Virus record (IMG/VR): IMGVR_UViG_2671180896_000003
Coordinates: 1 to 42,003 of that record
Strand: one strand, 5' to 3'
Length of the DNA stretch: 42,003 bases
Origin: a virus
Lineage: Duplodnaviria > Heunggongvirae > Uroviricota > Caudoviricetes
In this document: positions 1 through 42,003 of the stretch, piece by piece
How positions within the stretch are numbered: position 1 is the first letter of the stretch
How the letters are laid out: each line of letters starts with the position of its first letter
The notes under the pieces: model-generated
What the model was told of the DNA's origin: nothing
Seen by the model: the letters and a program-made list of their open reading frames with translations, nothing else
The model's database searches: none
Program-made: the position numbers and the translations under genes

Positions 1-549
1 TCAGCTAGCTGGAAACTTTTTATACAGAGTTGAGAGCCCTACTCCATACGTTTTTGATACGCTTTGTCGTGATTCACCGGTTGCCATCCGCTCCCCCATT
101 TCCCGCCATTGCTCATCCGTGAACTTAGGCCTGCGACCACCAACTCGCCCTTTTGCCCTGGCTACGGCCAGCCCTGCTAAGGTACGTTCGCTATTAAGAT
201 CAGATTCATATTGTGCTGCGGAAAGGATGTTACGAAAGTTATAGCGGCCGCTGGCTGTTTTGAGATCCACGCCATCAGTAATACTGCGGAAGTTGATACC
301 CTTTTCCTGTAACTGCTGGAACATCAACAGCGCATGCAGAACGTTGCGGCCTATCCTGTCCAGCTTCCAGACCACCAGTTCATCCCCCGGCTGCATAGTG
401 GCGATCAGCCGTTTTAGAACCGGCCGATTCGATTTCCTCCCGCTGGCATGCTCTTCAAAAATTTTCTCACAACCCGCTGACTTGAGCGCCGTTAGTTGCA
501 ATTCAGTGTCCTGGTGGTTTGTTGATACTCGGGCATAACCGTAAATCAT
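1..549 (-). CDS. pin: DNA invertase, serine recombinase of Hin/Gin/Pin family
   Basis: Protein from internal Met MIYGYARVSTNHQDTELQ... is typical resolvase/invertase N-terminus with C-terminal HTH; ATG at 547-549 preceded by AGGAG; stop at 1-3. ORF track extension to 708 has no homology and is probably not translated. Confidence 0.9.
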   Translation of the reverse strand: MIYGYARVSTNHQDTELQLTALKSAGCEKIFEEHASGRKSNRPVLKRLIATMQPGDELVVWKLDRIGRNVLHALLMFQQLQEKGINFRSITDGVDLKTASGRYNFRNILSAAQYESDLNSERTLAGLAVARAKGRVGGRRPKFTDEQWREMGERMATGESRQSVSKTYGVGLSTLYKKFPAS

Positions 550-608
550 GGGATTTCTCCTGTTATGAAAACAGGAGAAACGGCGAAGCATCACCAGATT
601 TTTGATGG

Positions 609-634
609 TTATAAAAAAGGTTGGTTTGGGAGAA
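609..634. repeat. Invertase crossover site (hix/gix-like), copy next to invertase gene
   Basis: TTATAAAAAAGG-TT-GGTTTGGGAGAA: two 12-bp half-sites around a 2-bp core, resembling hix/gix consensus; 14 bp identical in inverted orientation to site at 2548-2573. Confidence 0.7.
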
Positions 635-1075
635 GCGGCAAAACGGAATGTGGGCAACGGGGAAAACCAAATCCCTGATATGTCTTTCTGGACGGTTACT
701 GGTGGCAATGGAAATTTTGTGATTCGTCAACCTGACGGGCTAATCACTCAGATGGTTACTGTAAGTATAAGCGGTCCAGTGGCGATGAATGGAATGACTG
801 ATAATGCTTATGCCATTACAGGTTCTAATAAGTCTTATATTGCCACAGCCACATTGCCCTTTGTATTTCCTAATAAGGTGCTGGGCGTTATCCCTCTGGT
901 ATCAACAACAACCTATGGTGGTGTATCCAGTAATATTACAGGTTCATACGCGACGGCGGTTTGTTCTTTTGCCGCTGTCCGGGGGAATAATACGATTGTA
1001 TTCAAAGTCGACAAACCACTGAATGCAGCCTTTCCTTCAGATACCAGCGTCTCAGCGTTAATCATTGGACGGTAA
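623..1075 (+). CDS. Alternative tail-fibre C-terminal variable domain (silent in this orientation; no own start)
   Basis: Reading frame continues from crossover core (GLGEAAKRNVGNG...); after inversion it fuses in frame to the constant fibre N-terminus. The ATG at 602 in the ORF track is probably incidental. Confidence 0.65.
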   Translation, partial: GLGEAAKRNVGNGENQIPDMSFWTVTGGNGNFVIRQPDGLITQMVTVSISGPVAMNGMTDNAYAITGSNKSYIATATLPFVFPNKVLGVIPLVSTTTYGGVSSNITGSYATAVCSFAAVRGNNTIVFKVDKPLNAAFPSDTSVSALIIGR

Positions 1076-1077
1076 TA

Positions 1078-1521
1078 ATGAACTCAGTATTCTTTTCACC
1101 CGGAAGTAAAAGTTTTTATCTACAAGAATTGTTTCCAGAATATGAGGATGCGGGAACGCTTCCAGATGATATTATTGAAATTACCCGAGAAACATATGAG
1201 CAATTTCTTGGGCTGCATCCAGAAGGGAAAGAAATTGGCGCTGACAGTTCAGGACGGCCAATATGGATTAATTCCCCACCGCCTTCAAAAGAGGATGAGG
1301 TGTTGATGGCTGAAATGAAAAAAATATCTTTGGTTTCAGAAGCCAATACCTACATCAATACCCATCAGTGGCCTGGCAAAGCTGCTATTGGTCGTCTGAA
1401 AGGTAACGAGCTGGAGCAATATAATTTATGGCTGGATTATCTGGACGCACTGGAACTGGTTGATCCCTCCAGTGCTCCAGATATTGAATGGCCTACGCCT
1501 CCGGCAGTTCAGGCCAGATGA
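1078..1521 (+). CDS. Tail fibre assembly protein (chaperone) paired with the alternative fibre domain
   Basis: 147 aa, starts 3 nt after the alternative fibre domain; C-terminal region resembles the other Tfa (shared ...LDYLDA...VD...SAPDIEWP motif); convergent with and overlapping the 1493-2095 gene by 29 bp. Confidence 0.7.
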   Translation: MNSVFFSPGSKSFYLQELFPEYEDAGTLPDDIIEITRETYEQFLGLHPEGKEIGADSSGRPIWINSPPPSKEDEVLMAEMKKISLVSEANTYINTHQWPGKAAIGRLKGNELEQYNLWLDYLDALELVDPSSAPDIEWPTPPAVQAR

Positions 1522-2095
1522 CATTCGGCGCGGTGCTGGTATCTGTTACCGTCACCGCGTCAATGTAATCCAGCACGGCGTTAAGTCGGGTTGTTTCTGC
1601 CTGCGTCAGCTTCCGCCCGGCCTGTAATTTCAGTTGAATCAGACTAATGGAAGCCATTGCAGCATCAATCAGTGACTGGCGCTGTGCTTCTGCCGCGTCT
1701 ACTGCGGCGCTATGCTGTGCCTCAGTATCGGTCACCCATTTCTCACCATCCCATTTATCGTATGGCGTTAATGGGGCGATAGTGGTTGTATTTTCAGGGT
1801 AATCACCCGGAGCGGTGATTTCTTTTGATTCTCCTGTTTTGGTGCTATAGACCGTTTCACCGCGATGGTCTGGCACATATTCCCATGAGTTAAAATCTGC
1901 AGAACGGCAGATTGCATAACCAGCCTTATGTGTGCCAGGGGCATCTAAACAGGAACATGCCGGAATGCCGATACCAACGGTAAGATATTCATTTGAAGTG
2001 GAAATATATTCCCGAGTTTCACCATCATAGCTATAGACGGTAATATTCCCCGCCTTCGTGGCAATAAGCTCGCTATTTAATACAGCGTTATCCAT
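1493..2095 (-). CDS. Tail fibre assembly protein (chaperone), currently expressed orientation
   Basis: 200 aa; start overlaps fibre stop by 1 nt; conserved Tfa C-terminal motif (LNAVLDYIDAV...TSTAPNVIWPELP). Confidence 0.75.
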   Translation of the reverse strand: MDNAVLNSELIATKAGNITVYSYDGETREYISTSNEYLTVGIGIPACSCLDAPGTHKAGYAICRSADFNSWEYVPDHRGETVYSTKTGESKEITAPGDYPENTTTIAPLTPYDKWDGEKWVTDTEAQHSAAVDAAEAQRQSLIDAAMASISLIQLKLQAGRKLTQAETTRLNAVLDYIDAVTVTDTSTAPNVIWPELPEA

Positions 2096-2829
2096 TATGC
2101 AGCCCTCACGATAAAGTTAAATGCAATATTTCGCGCACGTGTTTCCGTTGATGTTCTGGCAACACGTGATGCATCAAAATAATAATTCGCCTGTTTATAT
2201 GTACCACCTGTCGCAATTGATGCGAGATTTGGTGTCAATGTTGAAGAGGTAAATGCGCCGACAGTATTATTATTTGGCCCCGTGGTCATATCCAAAAAGC
2301 TACCTGTAATATTTTGCAGCGTATCGCTCTGAGCACTCAATAACGCTCGCCCACTGTCCACTCCACGCCCATCATCCCAGCCACGAATAAACTCACCACG
2401 TAAATCAGGCAATTTATTTGTCGGGTAAACTTTTGCCAGTTCCGGGTATTCTTCAGCAGAAAAAGCGGCACCATTGCATTTCAGCCAACCTGTTGGCGGA
2501 GTGGCTGAAGGCCACGGAACAGGGACACCAACAGGTAATGCAGAGCCTTCTCCCAAACCAAGGTTTGTGGTAATCGCTGTCGCCAGCTTTGCCACCAGTC
2601 CATCAACGTCACCATCATCGAGCGCGTCCAGTTCGGCGTTCGCGATAAACTGCCCCAGTACAGCCGCCATCGTCGACGGTTGGCGCAGCGCTTTACTGAC
2701 CTGTGCGCTGGATGCTTTACCCGAGGAGAATCCTTTCTTCAGTGCGGTTAGCGTCTCCCATTCCTCCTGCGAGGTAACATTTGCATTAGCATCTGTCGCA
2801 AACGCTTTAAAATCATTAGTTCCAGCCAT
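2095..2829 (-). CDS. Tail fibre protein (constant N-terminus about 90 aa plus invertible C-terminal domain)
   Basis: Follows baseplate genes; start ATG 2827-2829 overlaps upstream stop (TAATG); crossover site in frame at residues TTNLGLGEG; Gly/Ser/Thr-rich fibre-like C-terminus. ORF track start at 2847 is also possible. Confidence 0.75.
   Translation of the reverse strand: MAGTNDFKAFATDANANVTSQEEWETLTALKKGFSSGKASSAQVSKALRQPSTMAAVLGQFIANAELDALDDGDVDGLVAKLATAITTNLGLGEGSALPVGVPVPWPSATPPTGWLKCNGAAFSAEEYPELAKVYPTNKLPDLRGEFIRGWDDGRGVDSGRALLSAQSDTLQNITGSFLDMTTGPNNNTVGAFTSSTLTPNLASIATGGTYKQANYYFDASRVARTSTETRARNIAFNFIVRAA
2548..2573. repeat. Invertase crossover site (hix/gix-like), copy inside tail-fibre gene
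   Basis: TTCTCCCAAACC-AA-GGTTTGTGGTAA; inverted repeat partner of 609-634; lies in frame within tail-fibre ORF at the codons for NLGLGE. Confidence 0.7.
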
Positions 2830-3509
2830 TAAAGTAATCTCCCCCATGCGCCGTCATCAAAACCGGCGATGTATTCGTTATCCATGTCAAATCCAAAGAA
2901 TTTTGTTCCTTCGGACGGTGTTTCGACTGAGGGTGTTTCAACGCCGCCAGCCCATACACCAGCAGCTTTAACGGTGAGATAACCCTGTTTGATAGCGGCT
3001 ATCAGTTCGAGTGACACATCAGAAATATCAGTCTCGGGAAAAACCCAGACCGATATCGTCATGTCCTGGTTATCGACGATCTGCATCTTCAGTCCAGAGC
3101 CTGCGGTAGCAGCGTCAAGGATGGGAGGCAGAGAGTCGTTCCGACCATCCCAGTTGTTGATAGCGATTTTCGCTTTCAGAATGATGCGGTACGTCTCATC
3201 ACTCAGCGTCGTATAGCCAGAATCAGGATCATATGGCCCTTGCCAGATGCCCTGGTCATATCCGAGCCCGTCAGTGTCCCAGCTGAAATAAACGCCGCTA
3301 ATTGGCTGGCTGACTATACGACTACGCCCAATCCACAGGCCGAGGATATCGAGTTGCACGCCAACCGCCGTATCGATATCGAAGGCTGTTACAAGCCCTG
3401 ACATAGTGCTGGACACATCAATCAGCGGGCGGGTGCTCAGATCTATATGGTCAAAAAAGAGTGGCTTGGTAGCATGGTAGTTAGTGATCAGTTCGGTGTA
3501 TTTGCTCAT
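2829..3509 (-). CDS. Phage tail protein (YmfQ/DUF2313-like, gpI position)
   Basis: Protein from MSKYTELITNYHATKPLFFDH...; ATG at 3507-3509 overlaps stop of upstream J-like gene (ATGA); position between baseplate J and tail fibre. Confidence 0.55.
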   Translation of the reverse strand: MSKYTELITNYHATKPLFFDHIDLSTRPLIDVSSTMSGLVTAFDIDTAVGVQLDILGLWIGRSRIVSQPISGVYFSWDTDGLGYDQGIWQGPYDPDSGYTTLSDETYRIILKAKIAINNWDGRNDSLPPILDAATAGSGLKMQIVDNQDMTISVWVFPETDISDVSLELIAAIKQGYLTVKAAGVWAGGVETPSVETPSEGTKFFGFDMDNEYIAGFDDGAWGRLL

Positions 3510-4705
3510 GAGGTCACCGTGATAGTGACGTGACTCGCAACGCATGACGCAGATTCGTCATAAGCAATATCGATATTTCCGCTTGCGACTGAGTCAGAGG
3601 ATTTGCCGATGAGCAGCTCCTGAATGTCGTAATAGCGAGCACTGCCTCCGCTTACCACGCCAAGGTTTGCCGGGGAATAAATACGACTCAGCAGAACGTC
3701 ATCGCCAATTGCCAGGCCATTTATATAATCGGCAACAGCCTGTTTTATCTGCTCGCCGATTTGAGATGTATACCCGGTAAAAACTTTCAGGGTAATGGCT
3801 ACAAAAATTGGCACATCGGTAGAACGCGAAAAACTGATGACGTGAGGATTACCGTAAGTATCCGGCACGGTGACAGAAGTTGTACCGTAAGTTGCGGTTC
3901 CCTGCCCTTTATTCCCCCTGATGGTCTGGGCGATTTCAGTCAGATCGCCGCCATCCACGATGGCAGAGATAGAGTGTGGCGGCAGCCCATTACTGTCGGT
4001 CGTGCCGGTATCATTCTCGTAGAGCTTGTGACGTGTAACCCCTGCAACGTTCACTATCGCGCCGTCCACCCCTTCAAACGGCGTGATGGAGGGTAGCGCG
4101 ACACTCTGCCCCTGCCGGATGCGCAGCTCTGCGTCGGTTTCCGCCGGGGATCCGACGGTGGCCGCCGCGGGGTTAGTTACCGAAGTCCAGCCGCGGGTCG
4201 GTGTGTTAATGGTCGTGACCGTTCCGGACAGCGCGGCCACTGCGCCGCTATTTGAGCAGGTGGCAGTGACCGTCGCCGTCCCGTCTAAACCAATTACCAC
4301 GGAAGCCGGCATGCTCCAGACCAGGCCATTCTTATCCCTGACGGAGCCATTCGAAATGGTCGTACCGGCCGCGCCGGTAAGCAGCAAATCAACCGTTGAG
4401 TTGGTAGCCGTTCTCCTTTTAATACCGTTTATTTTCACGTTCTTGCTCAGCCCTGCGCCATAAGCGGTGGCAGGCGAAAAGCTGTTGTAAACAGCAATGG
4501 CCGTGTTGTTAGCATCGTGAATAGCCAGGGCCACCAGCGCCACCATCTGCCCGTCTTTGCTGTCAGGATCCAGATAAGCATCGCTGCCATATATCTGCTT
4601 AAAGTAGTTGGTCAGGGTGTCCAGTATTGTCTGGTAATCAGGCGCGCTGATCCCCTCAGCGGTTACCGTTGCCGATAAGCCGAGCGTGTCCAAATTGAGG
4701 GCCAT
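3506..4705 (-). CDS. Baseplate J-like protein
   Basis: 399 aa; position and size match baseplate J/Mu gp47 family; directly follows gpW-like gene. Confidence 0.65.
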   Translation of the reverse strand: MALNLDTLGLSATVTAEGISAPDYQTILDTLTNYFKQIYGSDAYLDPDSKDGQMVALVALAIHDANNTAIAVYNSFSPATAYGAGLSKNVKINGIKRRTATNSTVDLLLTGAAGTTISNGSVRDKNGLVWSMPASVVIGLDGTATVTATCSNSGAVAALSGTVTTINTPTRGWTSVTNPAAATVGSPAETDAELRIRQGQSVALPSITPFEGVDGAIVNVAGVTRHKLYENDTGTTDSNGLPPHSISAIVDGGDLTEIAQTIRGNKGQGTATYGTTSVTVPDTYGNPHVISFSRSTDVPIFVAITLKVFTGYTSQIGEQIKQAVADYINGLAIGDDVLLSRIYSPANLGVVSGGSARYYDIQELLIGKSSDSVASGNIDIAYDESASCVASHVTITVTS

Positions 4706-5059
4706 TTATGCCTCGCTGGTAAGGGTGGTTTGTCCGTAGATAGTGTTTATGGTGGCTGTGAACGTTACCCGGCGTGTCGTGCTTTCATTCACGGTATCAA
4801 AGGCCAGTATGGACAGAACGCCAGGTGTGGTGCTGATGCGATCCCTGATCGCAAGGTTATAAACCTCAGGCCTTTGCTTTCCCAGAACCGACTGGATATA
4901 GGGTGTGCCCTCGGTTGTGTCCAGAAACCATTGCCCCTTCCACAGTTCAAAGCGCGTTTTAACGGCCTGGGCCACGCACTCGGGTGAGTTGACCAGAAAG
5001 GTGTCATCGCCCTGGCCGAAGGTGTAGTCCCCGTCGTCGTCTTCGCGTCGGTATCGCAT
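4706..5059 (-). CDS. Baseplate wedge protein (gpW / GP46-like)
   Basis: 117 aa small acidic protein between spike and J-like genes, the typical gpW/gp25 position. Confidence 0.5.
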   Translation of the reverse strand: MRYRREDDDGDYTFGQGDDTFLVNSPECVAQAVKTRFELWKGQWFLDTTEGTPYIQSVLGKQRPEVYNLAIRDRISTTPGVLSILAFDTVNESTTRRVTFTATINTIYGQTTLTSEA

Positions 5060-5933: not shown

Positions 5934-6284
5934 ATGCCAAAATCAGAAACAACCATAAAATTTACTCCAGCTATTTGGAAAGAGTTACTTCCTGTAATCC
6001 AGGATAACATACCCGCTAATGACTATGTAGTAAGTAAAAGAGTCAGAACGGGTGATTCTCCTGGCGCTATTGGCACAATTCTCGAAATATCTATTACCGT
6101 TATCACATCATCACCAGCTTGTATCGCCATTGCATCGATAGCGAGAAAATGGTTACAGACCAGATCATCAAAAAAAATAACGGTAACCACTGAAAAAGGT
6201 ACGATCGAAATACAAAATCTGACATCAAAGGAGCTTTCAGAAGTACTGGAGCAGTACAAAATTATAAGTTTTAAAGACGAGTAA
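5934..6284 (+). CDS. Hypothetical protein (moron candidate, antisense to late operon)
   Basis: 116-aa ORF followed immediately by a plus-strand terminator; weak RBS; one hydrophobic segment (ITVITSSPACIAIASIA). Coding status uncertain. Confidence 0.35.
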   Translation: MPKSETTIKFTPAIWKELLPVIQDNIPANDYVVSKRVRTGDSPGAIGTILEISITVITSSPACIAIASIARKWLQTRSSKKITVTTEKGTIEIQNLTSKELSEVLEQYKIISFKDE

Positions 6285-35387: not shown

Positions 35388-35460
35388 CCTGCGATTCTGC
35401 AGACGTGTCACAAAACCCAGCCACATAAACCTCAGATTTACAATTAACACCAACCTTAAG

Positions 35461-36121: not shown

Positions 36122-36256
36122 CGAAAACCCCGCGCAAGGCGAGATTCACGTCCGGTGCCACCGACCAAAGTTACACCGGAATTTATACCAAACCAAAAAA
36201 CATCCAATGGGCGCTATCTCTGGCCCGGGGATTCTAACACTCAAAAAAGAGGATCT

Positions 36257-39169
36257 CACATGGAATTTTTCCATCTGATAAAAGCCAGTCAGAAGTCTGG
36301 CAAGAAAGATGCAGTGATTTGGTTCACTGCGAAAAGTGTAGCGCGCGCCAATCTCCAACTCGATGTGGCACTGGAAGAAGCCGGAATTGAAGAAACTGGC
36401 CGCGGTAAAGATTATGCCAAACCAATCCGCACCGATTTCCCGGTATATGACGACCTGCCGGAAGAAGGCGCAGTGGATTACACCTGGTGCAAACGCTACG
36501 AACTGCAGAACGATGACCGCACCTGGATGCCAAAAGTCACAGCTGAAAACTCTGACGAGAAAACGGCTCAGACCGTTGATAGTCACATAACTACTGAGTC
36601 AACGCTGCCAGAAACCGCTGGCATCACGCTGGACGAACACGACGACGACTCAACCCTCTACCCGGTAGTGCAGATGCCGTTTCGTAAGCAACTGCTTTCC
36701 CAGTTCACCGCCGACGAACTGCGCCACCACGTAACCCGCGAAGAGTACGAAGCTATCGGCGCGCTGGAGATGGACACTGATAACAGTTACGTCCAGAACT
36801 TGCTGTTAGCTGCTGAGAACTGCCCGGACGTGAAGGGTTACGACACCAAAGACCTGTGGCGCTACACCGATGCCATTCGCAAAGTGTTCAGCCAGGACAA
36901 GCGTCACGAACTCGCGCTGGTACTCCGTTTCACCAGAATGTGGGCGGCGACTGATTACATTGACCGTGGCATCCTGGCGCGTGAATGGGCTGCCGGTAAT
37001 CACATCAGTAGTGTTCAGCGTACTGATTCCGGAACCAATGCCAACGGCGGTTACGTCACTGACCGTGGACCTGATGCATACCATACCCTTGACACTCTCG
37101 ATTTAGAGATTGCATGTGCCCTTCTGCCTATGGACTTCAACCACTTCGAGATCCCGGGCAGCATTCTTCGTCGCGCTAAAGAAATCGTGACCAAAAAAGA
37201 AGAACCGTGGAAATCATGGAGCAGCATTCTGCGCAATCAACCCGGCGTTCTTGGCGTTAACCGCACAGCTATTTTTAACCTGATACGTATCGCGCCGGAA
37301 AATATTCATCTAACTCCTGTCGCTCACCTGGAGTTTGTTAACCGGACCATGACTGCTGCGTTTAATGCTGCTGTTGAGTTATTGCCATTGCATGAAGCTG
37401 AGCCCGCAACACAGGAAATTCCCCAACCTGAAAGTAAGGAGTCTCCACGCAAACCCTTCTGCACTCACGAAGAGAACCTGCAACGCGTACGTGAAGAAGA
37501 AGCACGCCGCCGCGCAGAGGAAGCGACAGCACAACCACATAAAGCCGAACAAGAACTGGTTAAAAATGTCGGCAACGGAATATTCGATGTTACGGCTTTA
37601 CTGCAGAACTCAGCAACTCATGGCACGAAACAGGCTACGGAAACCACCAGCAATGTGCAGGTTCAAGAAACTGTCAGTGATGAAAAAAATGTTGGTAATG
37701 AAATGCAGTCAGGCGAAAGCAGTCTGGAAACTGGTGAAGAGTCACATCCCGGCCAGCAGGCCGATGTAAACCAAAATACGGAATCTGTCGCTCAAAATAG
37801 CGATTCTGTAAACCAGACTGAACCAGTTTTGGCACACGTCGAGCCAGAGGCGCAATCTGACGAACAAGCTGTTTTTTACCCCGATTACTTCGAGCCTGGG
37901 CGCTATGAAGGTCTGCCGAACGAGGTTTACCACGCTGCCAACGGCATCAGTTCCACCCAGGTAAAAGATGCGCGCGTTTCGCTGATGTACTTCAATGCGC
38001 GCCACGTTGAGAAAACCATCGTCAAAGAGCGCTCCTCAGTGCTGGACATGGGAAACCTGGTACATGCGCTGGCGTTGCAGCCAGAACAGCTCGATGAAGA
38101 ATTTAGCGTTGAACCCGTAATTCCGGAAGGTGCATTTACCACCACGGCAACGATCCGCGCGTTTATTGATGAGTACAACGCCAGCCTGCCAGCGCAACTG
38201 AGCGCAGACGATATCAAAGCTTTGCTGGATGAATACAACGCCACCCTGCCAGCGCTGGTGCCGCTGGGCGCTAGCCTGGATGAAACGGCGCAGAACTATA
38301 TGGCGCTGCCAGCTGAATTCCAACGTATCGATGCAGATCAGAAGAAGACAGCAACAGCAATGAAGGCGTGCATCAAAGAGTACAACGCCACCCTGCCAGC
38401 GCAGATTAAAACCAGCGGCAGCCGCGACGCACTACTCGAACAACTTGCGATTATCAATCCTGACCTGGTCGCGCAGGAAGCTCAGAAGCTGCAACCGCTG
38501 AAAGTCTCTGGCACGAAGGCCGATCTGATTCAGGCCGTGAAGGCAGTCAAACCAGATGCAGTGTTCGCCGACGAGCTGCTCGATGCGTGGCGCAACAACC
38601 CGGAAGGGAAAGTGCTGGTTACCCACCAGCAACTTGCCACCGCGCAGGCAATTCAGTCAGCACTGCTCTCGCACCCGACCGCAGGCATGCTGCTAACCCA
38701 CCCGAGCCGCGCCGTTGAGGTGAGCTACTTTGGCTTTGACGAGGAGACGGGACTGGAAGTTCGTGTGCGCCCTGACCTTGAGATCGACCTAGACGGCGTG
38801 CGTATCGGTGCTGACCTGAAAACCATCAGCATGTGGAATGTTAAGCAGGAAAGCCTGCGCGCCAGGCTACACCGGGAAATTATTGAACGTGATTATCACC
38901 TGAGCGCGGCTATGTACTGCGAAACCGCAGCGCTGGATCAGTTCTTCTGGATTTTCGTCAACAAAGACGAGAACTACCACTGGATCGCCATCATCGAGGC
39001 ATCCGCTGAACTACTGGAGCTGGGTATGCTCGAGTACCGCAAAGCGATGCGCAATATCGCAACCGGATTCGACACAGGTGAATGGCCAGCGCCAATCACT
39101 GCTGACTACACCGACGAACTGAACGACTTCGACCTGCGCCGCCTTGAAGCGCTGCGTACTCAGGCATAA
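36257..39169 (+). CDS. recE: Exodeoxyribonuclease VIII (RecE-like)
   Basis: 970 aa from MEFFHLIKAS (RBS AAGAGGA); segments DFPVYDDLPEEGAVDYTWCKRYEL and YIDRGILAREWAAGNHISSVQRTDSGTNANGGYVTDRG parallel recalled E. coli RecE; C-terminal nuclease domain expected. Confidence 0.85.
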   Translation, partial: HMEFFHLIKASQKSGKKDAVIWFTAKSVARANLQLDVALEEAGIEETGRGKDYAKPIRTDFPVYDDLPEEGAVDYTWCKRYELQNDDRTWMPKVTAENSDEKTAQTVDSHITTESTLPETAGITLDEHDDDSTLYPVVQMPFRKQLLSQFTADELRHHVTREEYEAIGALEMDTDNSYVQNLLLAAENCPDVKGYDTKDLWRYTDAIRKVFSQDKRHELALVLRFTRMWAATDYIDRGILAREWAAGNHISSVQRTDSGTNANGGYVTDRGPDAYHTLDTLDLEIACALLPMDFNHFEIPGSILRRAKEIVTKKEEPWKSWSSILRNQPGVLGVNRTAIFNLIRIAPENIHLTPVAHLEFVNRTMTAAFNAAVELLPLHEAEPATQEIPQPESKESPRKPFCTHEENLQRVREEEARRRAEEATAQPHKAEQELVKNVGNGIFDVTALLQNSATHGTKQATETTSNVQVQETVSDEKNVGNEMQSGESSLETGEESHPGQQADVNQNTESVAQNSDSVNQTEPVLAHVEPEAQSDEQAVFYPDYFEPGRYEGLPNEVYHAANGISSTQVKDARVSLMYFNARHVEKTIVKERSSVLDMGNLVHALALQPEQLDEEFSVEPVIPEGAFTTTATIRAFIDEYNASLPAQLSADDIKALLDEYNATLPALVPLGASLDETAQNYMALPAEFQRIDADQKKTATAMKACIKEYNATLPAQIKTSGSRDALLEQLAIINPDLVAQEAQKLQPLKVSGTKADLIQAVKAVKPDAVFADELLDAWRNNPEGKVLVTHQQLATAQAIQSALLSHPTAGMLLTHPSRAVEVSYFGFDEETGLEVRVRPDLEIDLDGVRIGADLKTISMWNVKQESLRARLHREIIERDYHLSAAMYCETAALDQFFWIFVNKDENYHWIAIIEASAELLELGMLEYRKAMRNIATGFDTGEWPAPITADYTDELNDFDLRRLEALRTQA

Positions 39170-40615: not shown

Positions 40616-40813
40616 ATGGATGATATTTTGGTAACGTCAGACCTGACCAGTCGCTACAAAATTTCACGCAAAACCCTTTGGTCATGGCAAAGTGCAGACA
40701 CAATGCCTCGGGGCTTCGTATGCCCGTTCCCACCCCCTGACTGGCCCGGCAACCCTAACCGCTGGCGCTCTGAGTCAATCAAAGAGTGGGAGGATAAAAA
40801 GAAGATAAATTAA
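40616..40813 (+). CDS. xis: Excisionase / AlpA-family DNA-binding protein
   Basis: From [24 protein letters not shown]...: AlpA-like HTH; RBS GGAGAGAG; stop overlaps integrase stop on opposite strand. ORF track TTG start at 40571 is less likely. Confidence 0.6.
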
Positions 40814-42003
40814 CTGAAGGGCTCTCCGATGATCTCTTCAAGATGGCTCTGCCAAACGCGGAGCCAGTGTTTCTGATCATCGATATAGTCATGAAGGTTG
40901 TAATGCGCCATAACCCCCACCATCTGATGCCCGAGCAGCTTTTCAATTACGTGCGGCGGGCAACCTAACTCAGAGAGATTTGTGGCTATCGTCCGCCTCA
41001 TATCATGAAGCGACCACTCTGCCATACCTGTTCCATTCCAAATAGAACGGGCGTAATTGGATGCCACAGGTGAATGAACGGGCGAATCTTTGATCCCGCC
41101 ATCAATTTTACGTTGTGAAGTCACCAGGTGATTGGTGTTTATTTTCTTGAGGTGATTTCTGACCAGGTTAACGGCGGCGTCTGAGAGTCCCCTTCTAATA
41201 TGTACCCGAGTTTTATAACTGCCCGCAGGCACGACCCACTCATTATCATCCAATCGAAACCATGATCTCTCACTAAGTCGAATCTCAGCCGTACGGCATC
41301 CGGTAAGCATAATAAATTTCACCAGGAAAACGGACTCTATCGACATATGGCTTTTCAACCACTGATAGATTTTGCGCAGATCGTCATCGTCCATCCTGCG
41401 AGTTCTCTTTTTAGGCTTTTGCCCGACATCAGATGGCAGTAATCCCTCGAGTGGGTTTGAGGCGATCACACTTCTGTTAACGCAGAACCTAAAGGCCCGT
41501 TTGCACAGCGAAAGCATGTAATGAGCCATCACCCTGCTTTCTATAGAATCGAAGACGTTGATCCAGTGCATTTTCGCTGTGTTATCGACTTTGACATTCT
41601 TCATCGGTTCGGCGATATGTTTCTCAAACACCTGGCGATAGTAATCGACTTTAACTAGCCCGTTAGCGATACAGTGCCTTTCAATCCAGTAATTGAACGC
41701 TTCGGCAACGGACATCGCTTCCTGTCGGGTCTGCTTATCCAGCTTCACCTGCTCTCGCGGATCCAGTCCCTCAGTTAACCAGTTTCTGAATTGTTGGCGA
41801 CGCTCTCTTGCCTGGGTGATACTCATTGCAGGATAATCACCAACATTGAGTTTTACCGCTTTACCGGCCCAGCGATACCGATAGAAAAATGATATTTTTC
41901 CGGCCTGGCTGATTCTGGCGTTGAGCCCGTGCGAATCAGAAATAATCTCGATATCATCTCTTTTCTTGCCGAGCGCCTTCCTGAGCTTTGTGTCGGTGAT
42001 CAT
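40810..42003 (-). CDS. int: Tyrosine integrase (P4-like family)
   Basis: 397 aa; N-terminal [10 protein letters not shown]...[20 protein letters not shown] arm-binding-like domain; C-terminal catalytic region with R...HxxR...Y pattern (HDMRRT...[11 protein letters not shown]); start codon at window edge. Confidence 0.85.

Follow-up and report, generated by a model that had tools for sequence, protein, structure and literature searches.

The 42,003-nt sequence analysed here (IMG/VR record IMGVR_UViG_2671180896_000003, positions 1–42,003; hereafter the window) has at its left end a serine DNA invertase gene and, directly beside it, a segment bounded by two inverted 26-bp sites. One of these sites lies within the open reading frame (ORF) of a tail-fibre gene. 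The gene thereby consists of a constant N-terminal part outside the segment and a variable C-terminal part inside it, and a second, silent C-terminal part lies in the opposite orientation at the other end. Behind each of the alternative C-termini comes a chaperone gene of its own; the invertase gene is adjacent to the segment but not part of it. The locus is very probably a switch for phage host range that works by site-specific inversion and has two states. The coordinates of all features are given in Table 1; G3/10 and ES5 are Escherichia coli genomes that contain the same prophage.

Table 1. Features of the inversion locus and of its surroundings (positions in the window)
Feature	Position	Strand	Remarks
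Serine DNA invertase gene	1–549	−	Complete, 182 aa; stop codon 1–3
Candidate Fis-like 15-mer	516–530	−	GAGTATCAACAAACC; centred on nt 27 of the coding sequence, ~100 bp from the left-site centre
Hairpin in invertase 5′ leader	553–581	−	12-bp stem; pairs with Shine-Dalgarno AGGAGA
Invertase-proximal (left) site	609–634		Outer half 609–620, core TT 621–622, inner half 623–634
Invertible segment	621–2561		1941 bp between core dinucleotides; on opposite strand in ES5 and G3/10
Silent alternative fibre C-terminus	623–1075	+	150 aa + stop
Chaperone for silent C-terminus	1078–1521	+	Caudo_TAP, 147 aa; Pfam PF02413, 1.1e-26
Chaperone for expressed C-terminus (TfaE-like)	1493–2095	−	200 aa; Pfam PF02413, 9.6e-32
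Expressed variable fibre C-terminus	2095–2561	−	155 aa; phage tail collar, Pfam Collar PF07484, 7.5e-15
Crossover site within fibre gene (right)	2548–2573		Inner half 2548–2559, core AA 2560–2561, outer half 2562–2573
Fibre constant N-terminal part	2562–2829	−	~89 aa from ATG 2829; longest ORF to 2847
DUF2612 baseplate-wedge gene	2829–3509	−	Pfam PF11041, 1.9e-46; directly upstream of fibre gene
Integrase gene	40810–42003		Within the window

The fibre gene (2095–2829) encodes 244 residues from ATG 2829 and 250 residues as the longest ORF. ATG 2829 is most likely the start rather than 2847, because it overlaps the stop codon of the DUF2612 gene (TAATG) and is annotated so in relatives. Matches to tail-fibre N-terminal families of PHROG span residues 1–96 of the longest ORF, and the C-terminal matches start at residue ~90, which is the crossover point; the domain boundary by PHROG is thus at residues 90–96. 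Across the right site, the minus strand reads ...TTNLGLGE..., with NLGLGE encoded in frame by the site, as the first-pass annotation of this DNA had claimed. The ORF of the silent end has its listed start at TTG 602 or ATG 605 on the plus strand and reads ...KKVGLGE... across the left site; the earlier statement that this frame also passes through GLGE and heads an alternative C-terminus is correct. ATG 605 has no Shine-Dalgarno sequence before it. A consensus scan for a promoter of the silent ORF or of the invertase gave weak matches only (9, as compared to 5.1 ± 2.2 in shuffled sequence), judged not above expectation. The silent C-terminus has a weak match to Gp53-like_C (Pfam) and further matches to PHROG 12714 and other tail-fibre families of PHROG. 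Compared with the expressed C-terminus, it shows no relationship (E = 0.62).

The variable parts have similar lengths (155 and 150–151 residues). Flipping the segment in silico at the cores yields an in-frame fusion of 741 nt (246 residues), in agreement with the proposal that inversion would swap about 150 C-terminal residues of the fibre together with the dedicated chaperone. The two chaperone genes, both Caudo_TAP, are convergent and overlap by 29 bp, exactly as previously annotated. The TfaE-like chaperone is 94% identical to TfaE of prophage e14; the chaperone of the silent end aligns with e14 TfaP over 123 residues, at 56% identity. Other gp53-like silent cassettes adjoin the same invertase in many E. 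coli prophages. They are similar for ~60 bp past the crossover (to window 682–686), encoding AAKRNVGNGENQIP, and then diverge, which suggests a conserved linker common to one cassette class.

The left site has the sequence TTATAAAAAAGG TT GGTTTGGGAGAA and the right site TTCTCCCAAACC AA GGTTTGTGGTAA. Both are made up of 12-bp half-sites around matching, non-palindromic 2-bp cores, and when one site is set against the other in reverse complement, 21 of 26 positions agree. The inner halves are identical and the cores are compatible; the outer half of the left site is imperfect (CCTTTTTTATAA read outward). The first-pass annotation had placed both sites correctly but counted 14 identical bp, whereas the exact inverted run is 15 bp (621–635 and 2547–2561), the longest inverted repeat in 1–4000. 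Its assignment of the sites to the hix/gix type was upheld by alignment with Mu gix, P1 cix, Salmonella hix and the e14 sites; the 12-2-12 layout agrees with gix, cix and hix, the hix reference sites having been verified in a Salmonella H-segment contig that holds fljB and hin. The 14-mer has no exact copy elsewhere in the window, and 0.22 matches would be expected by chance at up to 2 mismatches. No third crossover site was found in the window, the sole other weak match (at 35444) having 9 mismatches. The system is a two-state one, with two sites only. A shufflon, which would have extra sites, was considered and rejected, the remaining matches being judged chance. Two look-alikes of the inner half, TTGGTTTGGTATAA and TTGGTTTGGCATAA, are minus-strand matches (36183–36196 and 36412–36425) within a recE-like ORF (36155–39169). 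They are in direct orientation, 229 bp apart, have 2 mismatches each and no full 26-bp site around them; they probably occur by chance.

The invertase gene is an intact ORF adjacent to the segment, as had been noted before. The protein has the architecture of a small serine recombinase, with an N-terminal catalytic domain carrying the nucleophilic serine (Pfam Resolvase, 3.6e-39) and a C-terminal helix-turn-helix (HTH_7, 1.5e-9). It matches PHROG 125 'DNA invertase', and residues 1–181 align end to end with the Gin crystal structures 3UJ3 and 4M6F (E 1e-56). The catalytic residues Y5, R7, S9, D64, R65, and R68 are conserved. The enzyme is 55% identical to PinE and 51–52% identical to Gin and Cin. 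A PinR/PinQ-like identity was rejected (36% identity to PinR). The earlier label 'Pin-type' therefore suits the sites, where inner half and core are those of e14, and the TfaE-like cassette, but not the enzyme. Sequences with 79–100% identity to the invertase make up more than 120 protein clusters and come from Escherichia, Citrobacter, Klebsiella, Enterobacter, Salmonella, Serratia, Morganella, and others. By sequence comparison, the invertase would belong to a large, uncharacterised clade of Enterobacterales phages that is a sister to the Hin/Gin/Cin/Pin enzymes. In loci of other species (Trabulsiella, Kluyvera, Erwinia, Citrobacter, Morganella, and others), the segments are ~1.7–3.4 kb long where both sites are recognised. 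At several of these loci, the proximal or the distal site was not found at up to 3 mismatches, and some may be degenerate or multi-site systems.

The 5′ leader of the invertase gene contains a hairpin in which UUUCUCCUGUUU pairs with AACAGGAGAAAU, masking the Shine-Dalgarno sequence. The RNA fold of 540–625 (−) has an energy of −23.1 kcal/mol (z = −5.3). The hairpin sequence is kept in a subclade comprising relatives from Trabulsiella, Pseudocitrobacter, Shimwellia, Apirhabdus, and Kluyvera and the phage mEp237; weaker hairpins are located upstream of pinE and gin. A role of the hairpin as a translational brake is possible.

The inversion predicted at the two sites is found in nature, as the same prophage occurs in the opposite orientation in other genomes. 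In E. coli G3/10, window positions 1–635 (99.8% identity) and 2547–4000 (98.5%) are collinear, while 1480–2149 and 2323–2561, with the TfaE-like chaperone and the collar C-terminus, are on the opposite strand and adjoin the invertase. In E. coli ES5, 1–635 is collinear (99.7%), and 621–2155 and 2347–2561 are inverted, with both cassettes in flipped order. Both prophages are located at the same yciI locus as that of the window, and in both the strand switch falls inside the 15-bp repeat. The prophages of CH468 and Res13 have the orientation of the window. Counts in 5426 complete E. coli genomes gave 52 with the flipped left junction (invertase followed by the collar cassette) and 2 with the present junction. 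None of these genomes holds the same prophage with both cassettes flipped and both flanks, when at least 80% of a flipped 3.6-kb query had to be covered; the evidence for inversion thus rests on G3/10 (both flanks, one shared cassette) and ES5 (both cassettes, left flank only). In five E. coli genomes and one Logan contig, the silent cassette continues a homologous fibre N-terminus in frame, with its chaperone gene behind it. Two of the five, GPT24-02 and 23S01245-7, were inspected, and in both the recombinase gene is truncated. The protein of the Logan contig covers 98% of the predicted fusion at 97% identity. The silent cassette would therefore appear to be a working fibre end in other prophages.

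Thus, the anatomy and the reading frames are those of a switch, the catalytic residues are intact, and both orientations exist in nature with breakpoints at the sites. In the mechanism that we propose, the constant N-terminus of ~89 residues would anchor a short fibre to the baseplate and the variable C-terminus of ~150 residues would be the receptor-binding part. By analogy with the Hin/Gin family, from which the cleavage chemistry is inferred, dimers of the invertase would bind both inverted sites and make 2-bp staggered cuts at the AA/TT cores. One pair of subunits would rotate by 180° before religation, and the 1941 bp between the cores would be inverted. In the present orientation, the fibre would end in the tail-collar domain, followed by the TfaE-like chaperone. 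After the flip, the same promoter and N-terminus would be read in frame (...NLGLGE...) into the unrelated gp53-like domain and its own chaperone, and the collar/TfaE-like pair would lie silent beside the invertase gene. A population of lysogens would release two kinds of virion with different receptor specificity; this predicted difference in host range is deduced from homology and from the unrelated C-terminal domains.

Several observations weigh against a working switch. The orientation differences lie between genomes and would record past events only. The length of the repeat is by itself just moderately improbable: in 200 dinucleotide-preserving shuffles of 1–4000, one reached 15 bp and six reached at least 14 bp. 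What makes the site pair convincing is its context, since the 14 bp recur on either side of the e14 P segment and the layout is like that of hix, gix, and cix. The outer half of the left site has CC rather than GG beside the core and matches the consensus half at 9 of 12 positions. This core-adjacent CC is kept in seven species loci of the invertase clade, where the invertase-proximal site has the conserved asymmetric form AAACC AA CCTTT. No convincing promoter of the invertase was found in the scan against shuffled sequence, and as the ribosome-binding site is sequestered by the hairpin, expression may be very low. Finally, the canonical Fis enhancer is not recognisable, so that the usual route of activation may be missing.

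The locus belongs to the long-known Mu G / e14 P kind, of which P1 C and p15B Min are other members, and is a further instance of it. The first-pass annotation had called it a complete switch of this type, and in its anatomy it is one, all structural elements named there being present and correctly placed. The closest likeness is to the e14 P segment, for which inversion has been shown experimentally (PMC4272514; PMC12529663). Both have the same order of fibre N-terminus, variable C-terminus, chaperone, convergent chaperone, silent C-terminus, and invertase; the same 29-bp overlap (tfaP/tfaE in e14); and the same 14 bp of inner half and core (TTGGTTTGGGAGAA) at both ends. Besides TfaE, the other chaperone shows conservation at its 3′ end, and the homology to e14 stfE/tfaE amounts to 95.7% nucleotide identity over 2363–2569. 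The second cassette, in contrast, is StfP in e14 and the gp53-like domain here, and the invertase of e14 is PinE, whereas that of the window is from the other clade. The fibre N-termini, the outer half-sites, and the baseplate neighbours (DUF2313 YmfQ in e14, DUF2612 here) also differ. The P segment is reported as 1797 bp (PMC12529663), compared to 1941 bp here, and e14 is a cryptic prophage, while the present prophage is complete and is located at another attachment site.

Mu G/Gin and P1 C/Cin share with the locus a crossover in the fibre ORF, two C-termini each with an assembly protein, the convergent arrangement, the adjacent invertase, and the 26-bp sites. Their segments are larger (3–4 kb) and encode long fibres, whereas the fibre here is short. 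The core of Mu gix is GA instead of TT/AA, and the P1 site runs into cin at the 3′ end of the gene and not on its 5′ side. Gin and Cin have the canonical Fis site that is absent here. Salmonella Hin/H also has a small serine invertase, 26-bp sites of like layout, and a similar distance from site to ATG. In one hix site the outer half is likewise imperfect, the dinucleotide by the core being off consensus (TTTTCCTTTTGG AA ...). Hin, however, flips a promoter and not coding cassettes, and its Fis-contact and helix-E residues are not conserved here.

The lambdoid phage mEp237 (JQ182730) has an invertase 100% identical to that of the window with the same leader hairpin, and, as here, the invertase adjoins a phi80-type attachment site and integrase module. 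In contrast, it is a siphovirus with a single good site (TTCTCCCAAACCAACCTTTCAAATAT) upstream of the invertase. Two positions were considered (4916–4941 and 2917–2942), one of them good; the sole candidate partner is weak, has the core GA, and lies in the side tail-fibre gene. As there is only one good site and no alternative cassettes, the invertase of mEp237 appears to be orphaned. No functional study of it was found in the literature. The homology that the window shares with P2-like phages and with e14 has its limits at the sites (621–2567); these limits would fit the known role of such sites as joints for the exchange of fibre modules.

The rate of switching and the cofactors that it needs are inferred, and two views of the invertase compete here. 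The first is that it works in the canonical Hin/Gin mode, with a strict need for Fis bound to a two-site enhancer in the 5′ end of the invertase gene that has drifted past recognition; we give this view slightly less than an even chance. Thirteen clade loci, including the window, and mEp237 were scanned for the Fis consensus and compared to hin, gin, cin, and pinE. The latter four match the core consensus at 7 of 7 positions at the homologous distal position in the 5′ coding region. In all 13 clade loci and in mEp237, this position (nt 71–85 of the coding sequence, window 465–479) has C for G at −7; the window also has A at +7. G at −7 and C at +7 are common to the published forms of the consensus. 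The core consensus is thus lost at the homologous position, which speaks against the canonical mode, although Fis sites are very degenerate. Three observations would fit an enhancer. The Fis-like 15-mer matches GNNYRNNWNNYRNNC at 6–7 of 7 positions in 11 of the 13 clade loci and in mEp237, and it is the sole conserved one in the 5′ coding region of the invertase. The geometry is kept, with 72.5 bp between the centre of the left site and the ATG of the invertase (hin contig, 74.5 bp). Synonymous variation dips over codons 1–20 only (normalised entropy 0.40–0.59 vs a mean of 0.75 in 13 clade genes); ordinary constraints on translation initiation could also suffice for this dip.

The enzyme itself bears on the same question. 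In Hin, contact with Fis is reported for Q151, R154, and L155, which are described as specific to invertases; the basic residues 47, 48, and 51 are likewise described (PMC3798978). The window has E150, E153, and R154 in place of Q151, R154, and L155, and these positions are variable within the clade but invariant across Hin, Gin, Cin, and PinE. The position of Hin K51 is alanine; K46 and R47 of helix B are retained, which is in favour of Fis contact. In helix E, the positions of Hin F105, H107, M109, L112, and M115 are N, R, I, A, and Y. The helix is invariant in 121 of 121 clade sequences (GRYNFRNILSAAQYE, compared to the classical GRFFFHVMGALAEME), so that Asn at the position of F105 and Arg at that of H107 are fixed, which speaks against a strict need for Fis. 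The substitution F105N in Hin leads to Fis-independent inversion (PMC4513852). H107Y is a standard Fis-independent mutant of Hin, and Arg at the analogous position of Sin leads to hyperactivity (PMC4817059). From the helix-E Asn and Arg, the unconserved Fis contacts, and the lost distal Fis site, we put forward the tentative hypothesis that the invertase clade may have given up the Fis/enhancer control that defines the classical family. Taken together with the asymmetric proximal site and the leader hairpin, the changes in the enzyme suggest that the switching rate would be set by enzyme level and site asymmetry and not by Fis.

Host-range switching itself is textbook biology. For annotation, it means that the 'hypothetical protein' beside the recombinase would be a silent fibre end and that the host range of the prophage would be bimodal; for phage engineering, the cassettes would be exchangeable at a defined 26-bp site. 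The more interesting aspect is the recombinase clade, a specialist-level lead. Should this widespread clade invert DNA independently of Fis, it would parallel in nature the 'hyperactive' mutants of Hin and Gin made in the laboratory, would help to understand how serine invertases are restrained, and would offer a compact, cofactor-independent inversion tool for hix-like sites.

That the locus is a frozen relic is unlikely. In such a case, an ancestral switch would no longer flip, with the invertase inactive or barely expressed or the left site unused, and the fibre would be permanently of the collar type. Several E. coli prophages do keep the segment with just 123 bp of the recombinase gene, and the Logan contig has one cassette and a mutated site; the masked Shine-Dalgarno sequence and the lack of a clear invertase promoter in the scan point the same way. 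DNA invertases are, however, normally weakly expressed. The intact ORF with all catalytic residues, the conservation of the clade across many genera, and the identical inner halves with compatible cores all argue for a functional switch, as does the opposite orientation in prophages that are 99.7–99.8% identical in nucleotides 1–635.

It is quite improbable that the switch mainly serves the lysogen, with the fibre-derived protein of one orientation blocking the adsorption of other phages. The model for this is the StfE2 fusion of e14, which is made after inversion of the P segment and is reported to inhibit adsorption of T2 (PMC12529663). The end that this fusion carries is the one to which the expressed C-terminus, with its chaperone, is homologous (stfE/tfaE), to the extent given above. 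The present prophage, however, appears complete and inducible by its gene content. Its fibre gene belongs to the late tail operon, which is not expected to be expressed without induction of the lysogen, and free phages of several families have also conserved the module.

Least likely is that the orientation differences result from cassette replacement by general recombination between phages rather than from the invertase: the segment is clearly a horizontally exchanged module with homology limits at the sites, and many relatives have other cassettes beside the same invertase, but G3/10 and ES5 hold the same sequences reverse-complemented between collinear flanks with switch points within the 15-bp repeat. 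Such a pattern is what inversion leaves behind, and RecA does not recombine efficiently over as little as 15 bp. Both processes, cassette exchange and inversion, may nevertheless operate side by side.

The inversion switch is located at the extreme end of the tail operon. The window is apparently an entire, intact 42-kb temperate prophage of the myovirus type, as judged from the gene content of its CH468 relative and from the integrase gene in the window. The CH468 (E. coli) prophage is ~98% identical to the window over the alignable parts of 1–4000 and, likewise, is located between yciI and kch. It extends from the same invertase at one end to a tyrosine integrase at the other and is annotated with head, tail, lysis, replication, repressor, and integrase genes. 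Its modules are a SEN34-like myovirus head, tail, and baseplate combined with lambdoid lysis, replication, repressor, and RecET functions. As to the DUF2612 gene upstream of the fibre gene, a published survey found such genes enriched beside predicted programmed inversions (PMC9881135). Within the baseplate operon, a gene with an EACC1 domain (5934–6284, Pfam PF19953, 1.1e-6) lies on the opposite (+) strand. In related prophages, this slot is occupied by DUF4236, HEPN, or other genes, and it looks like a variable cargo or defence hotspot.

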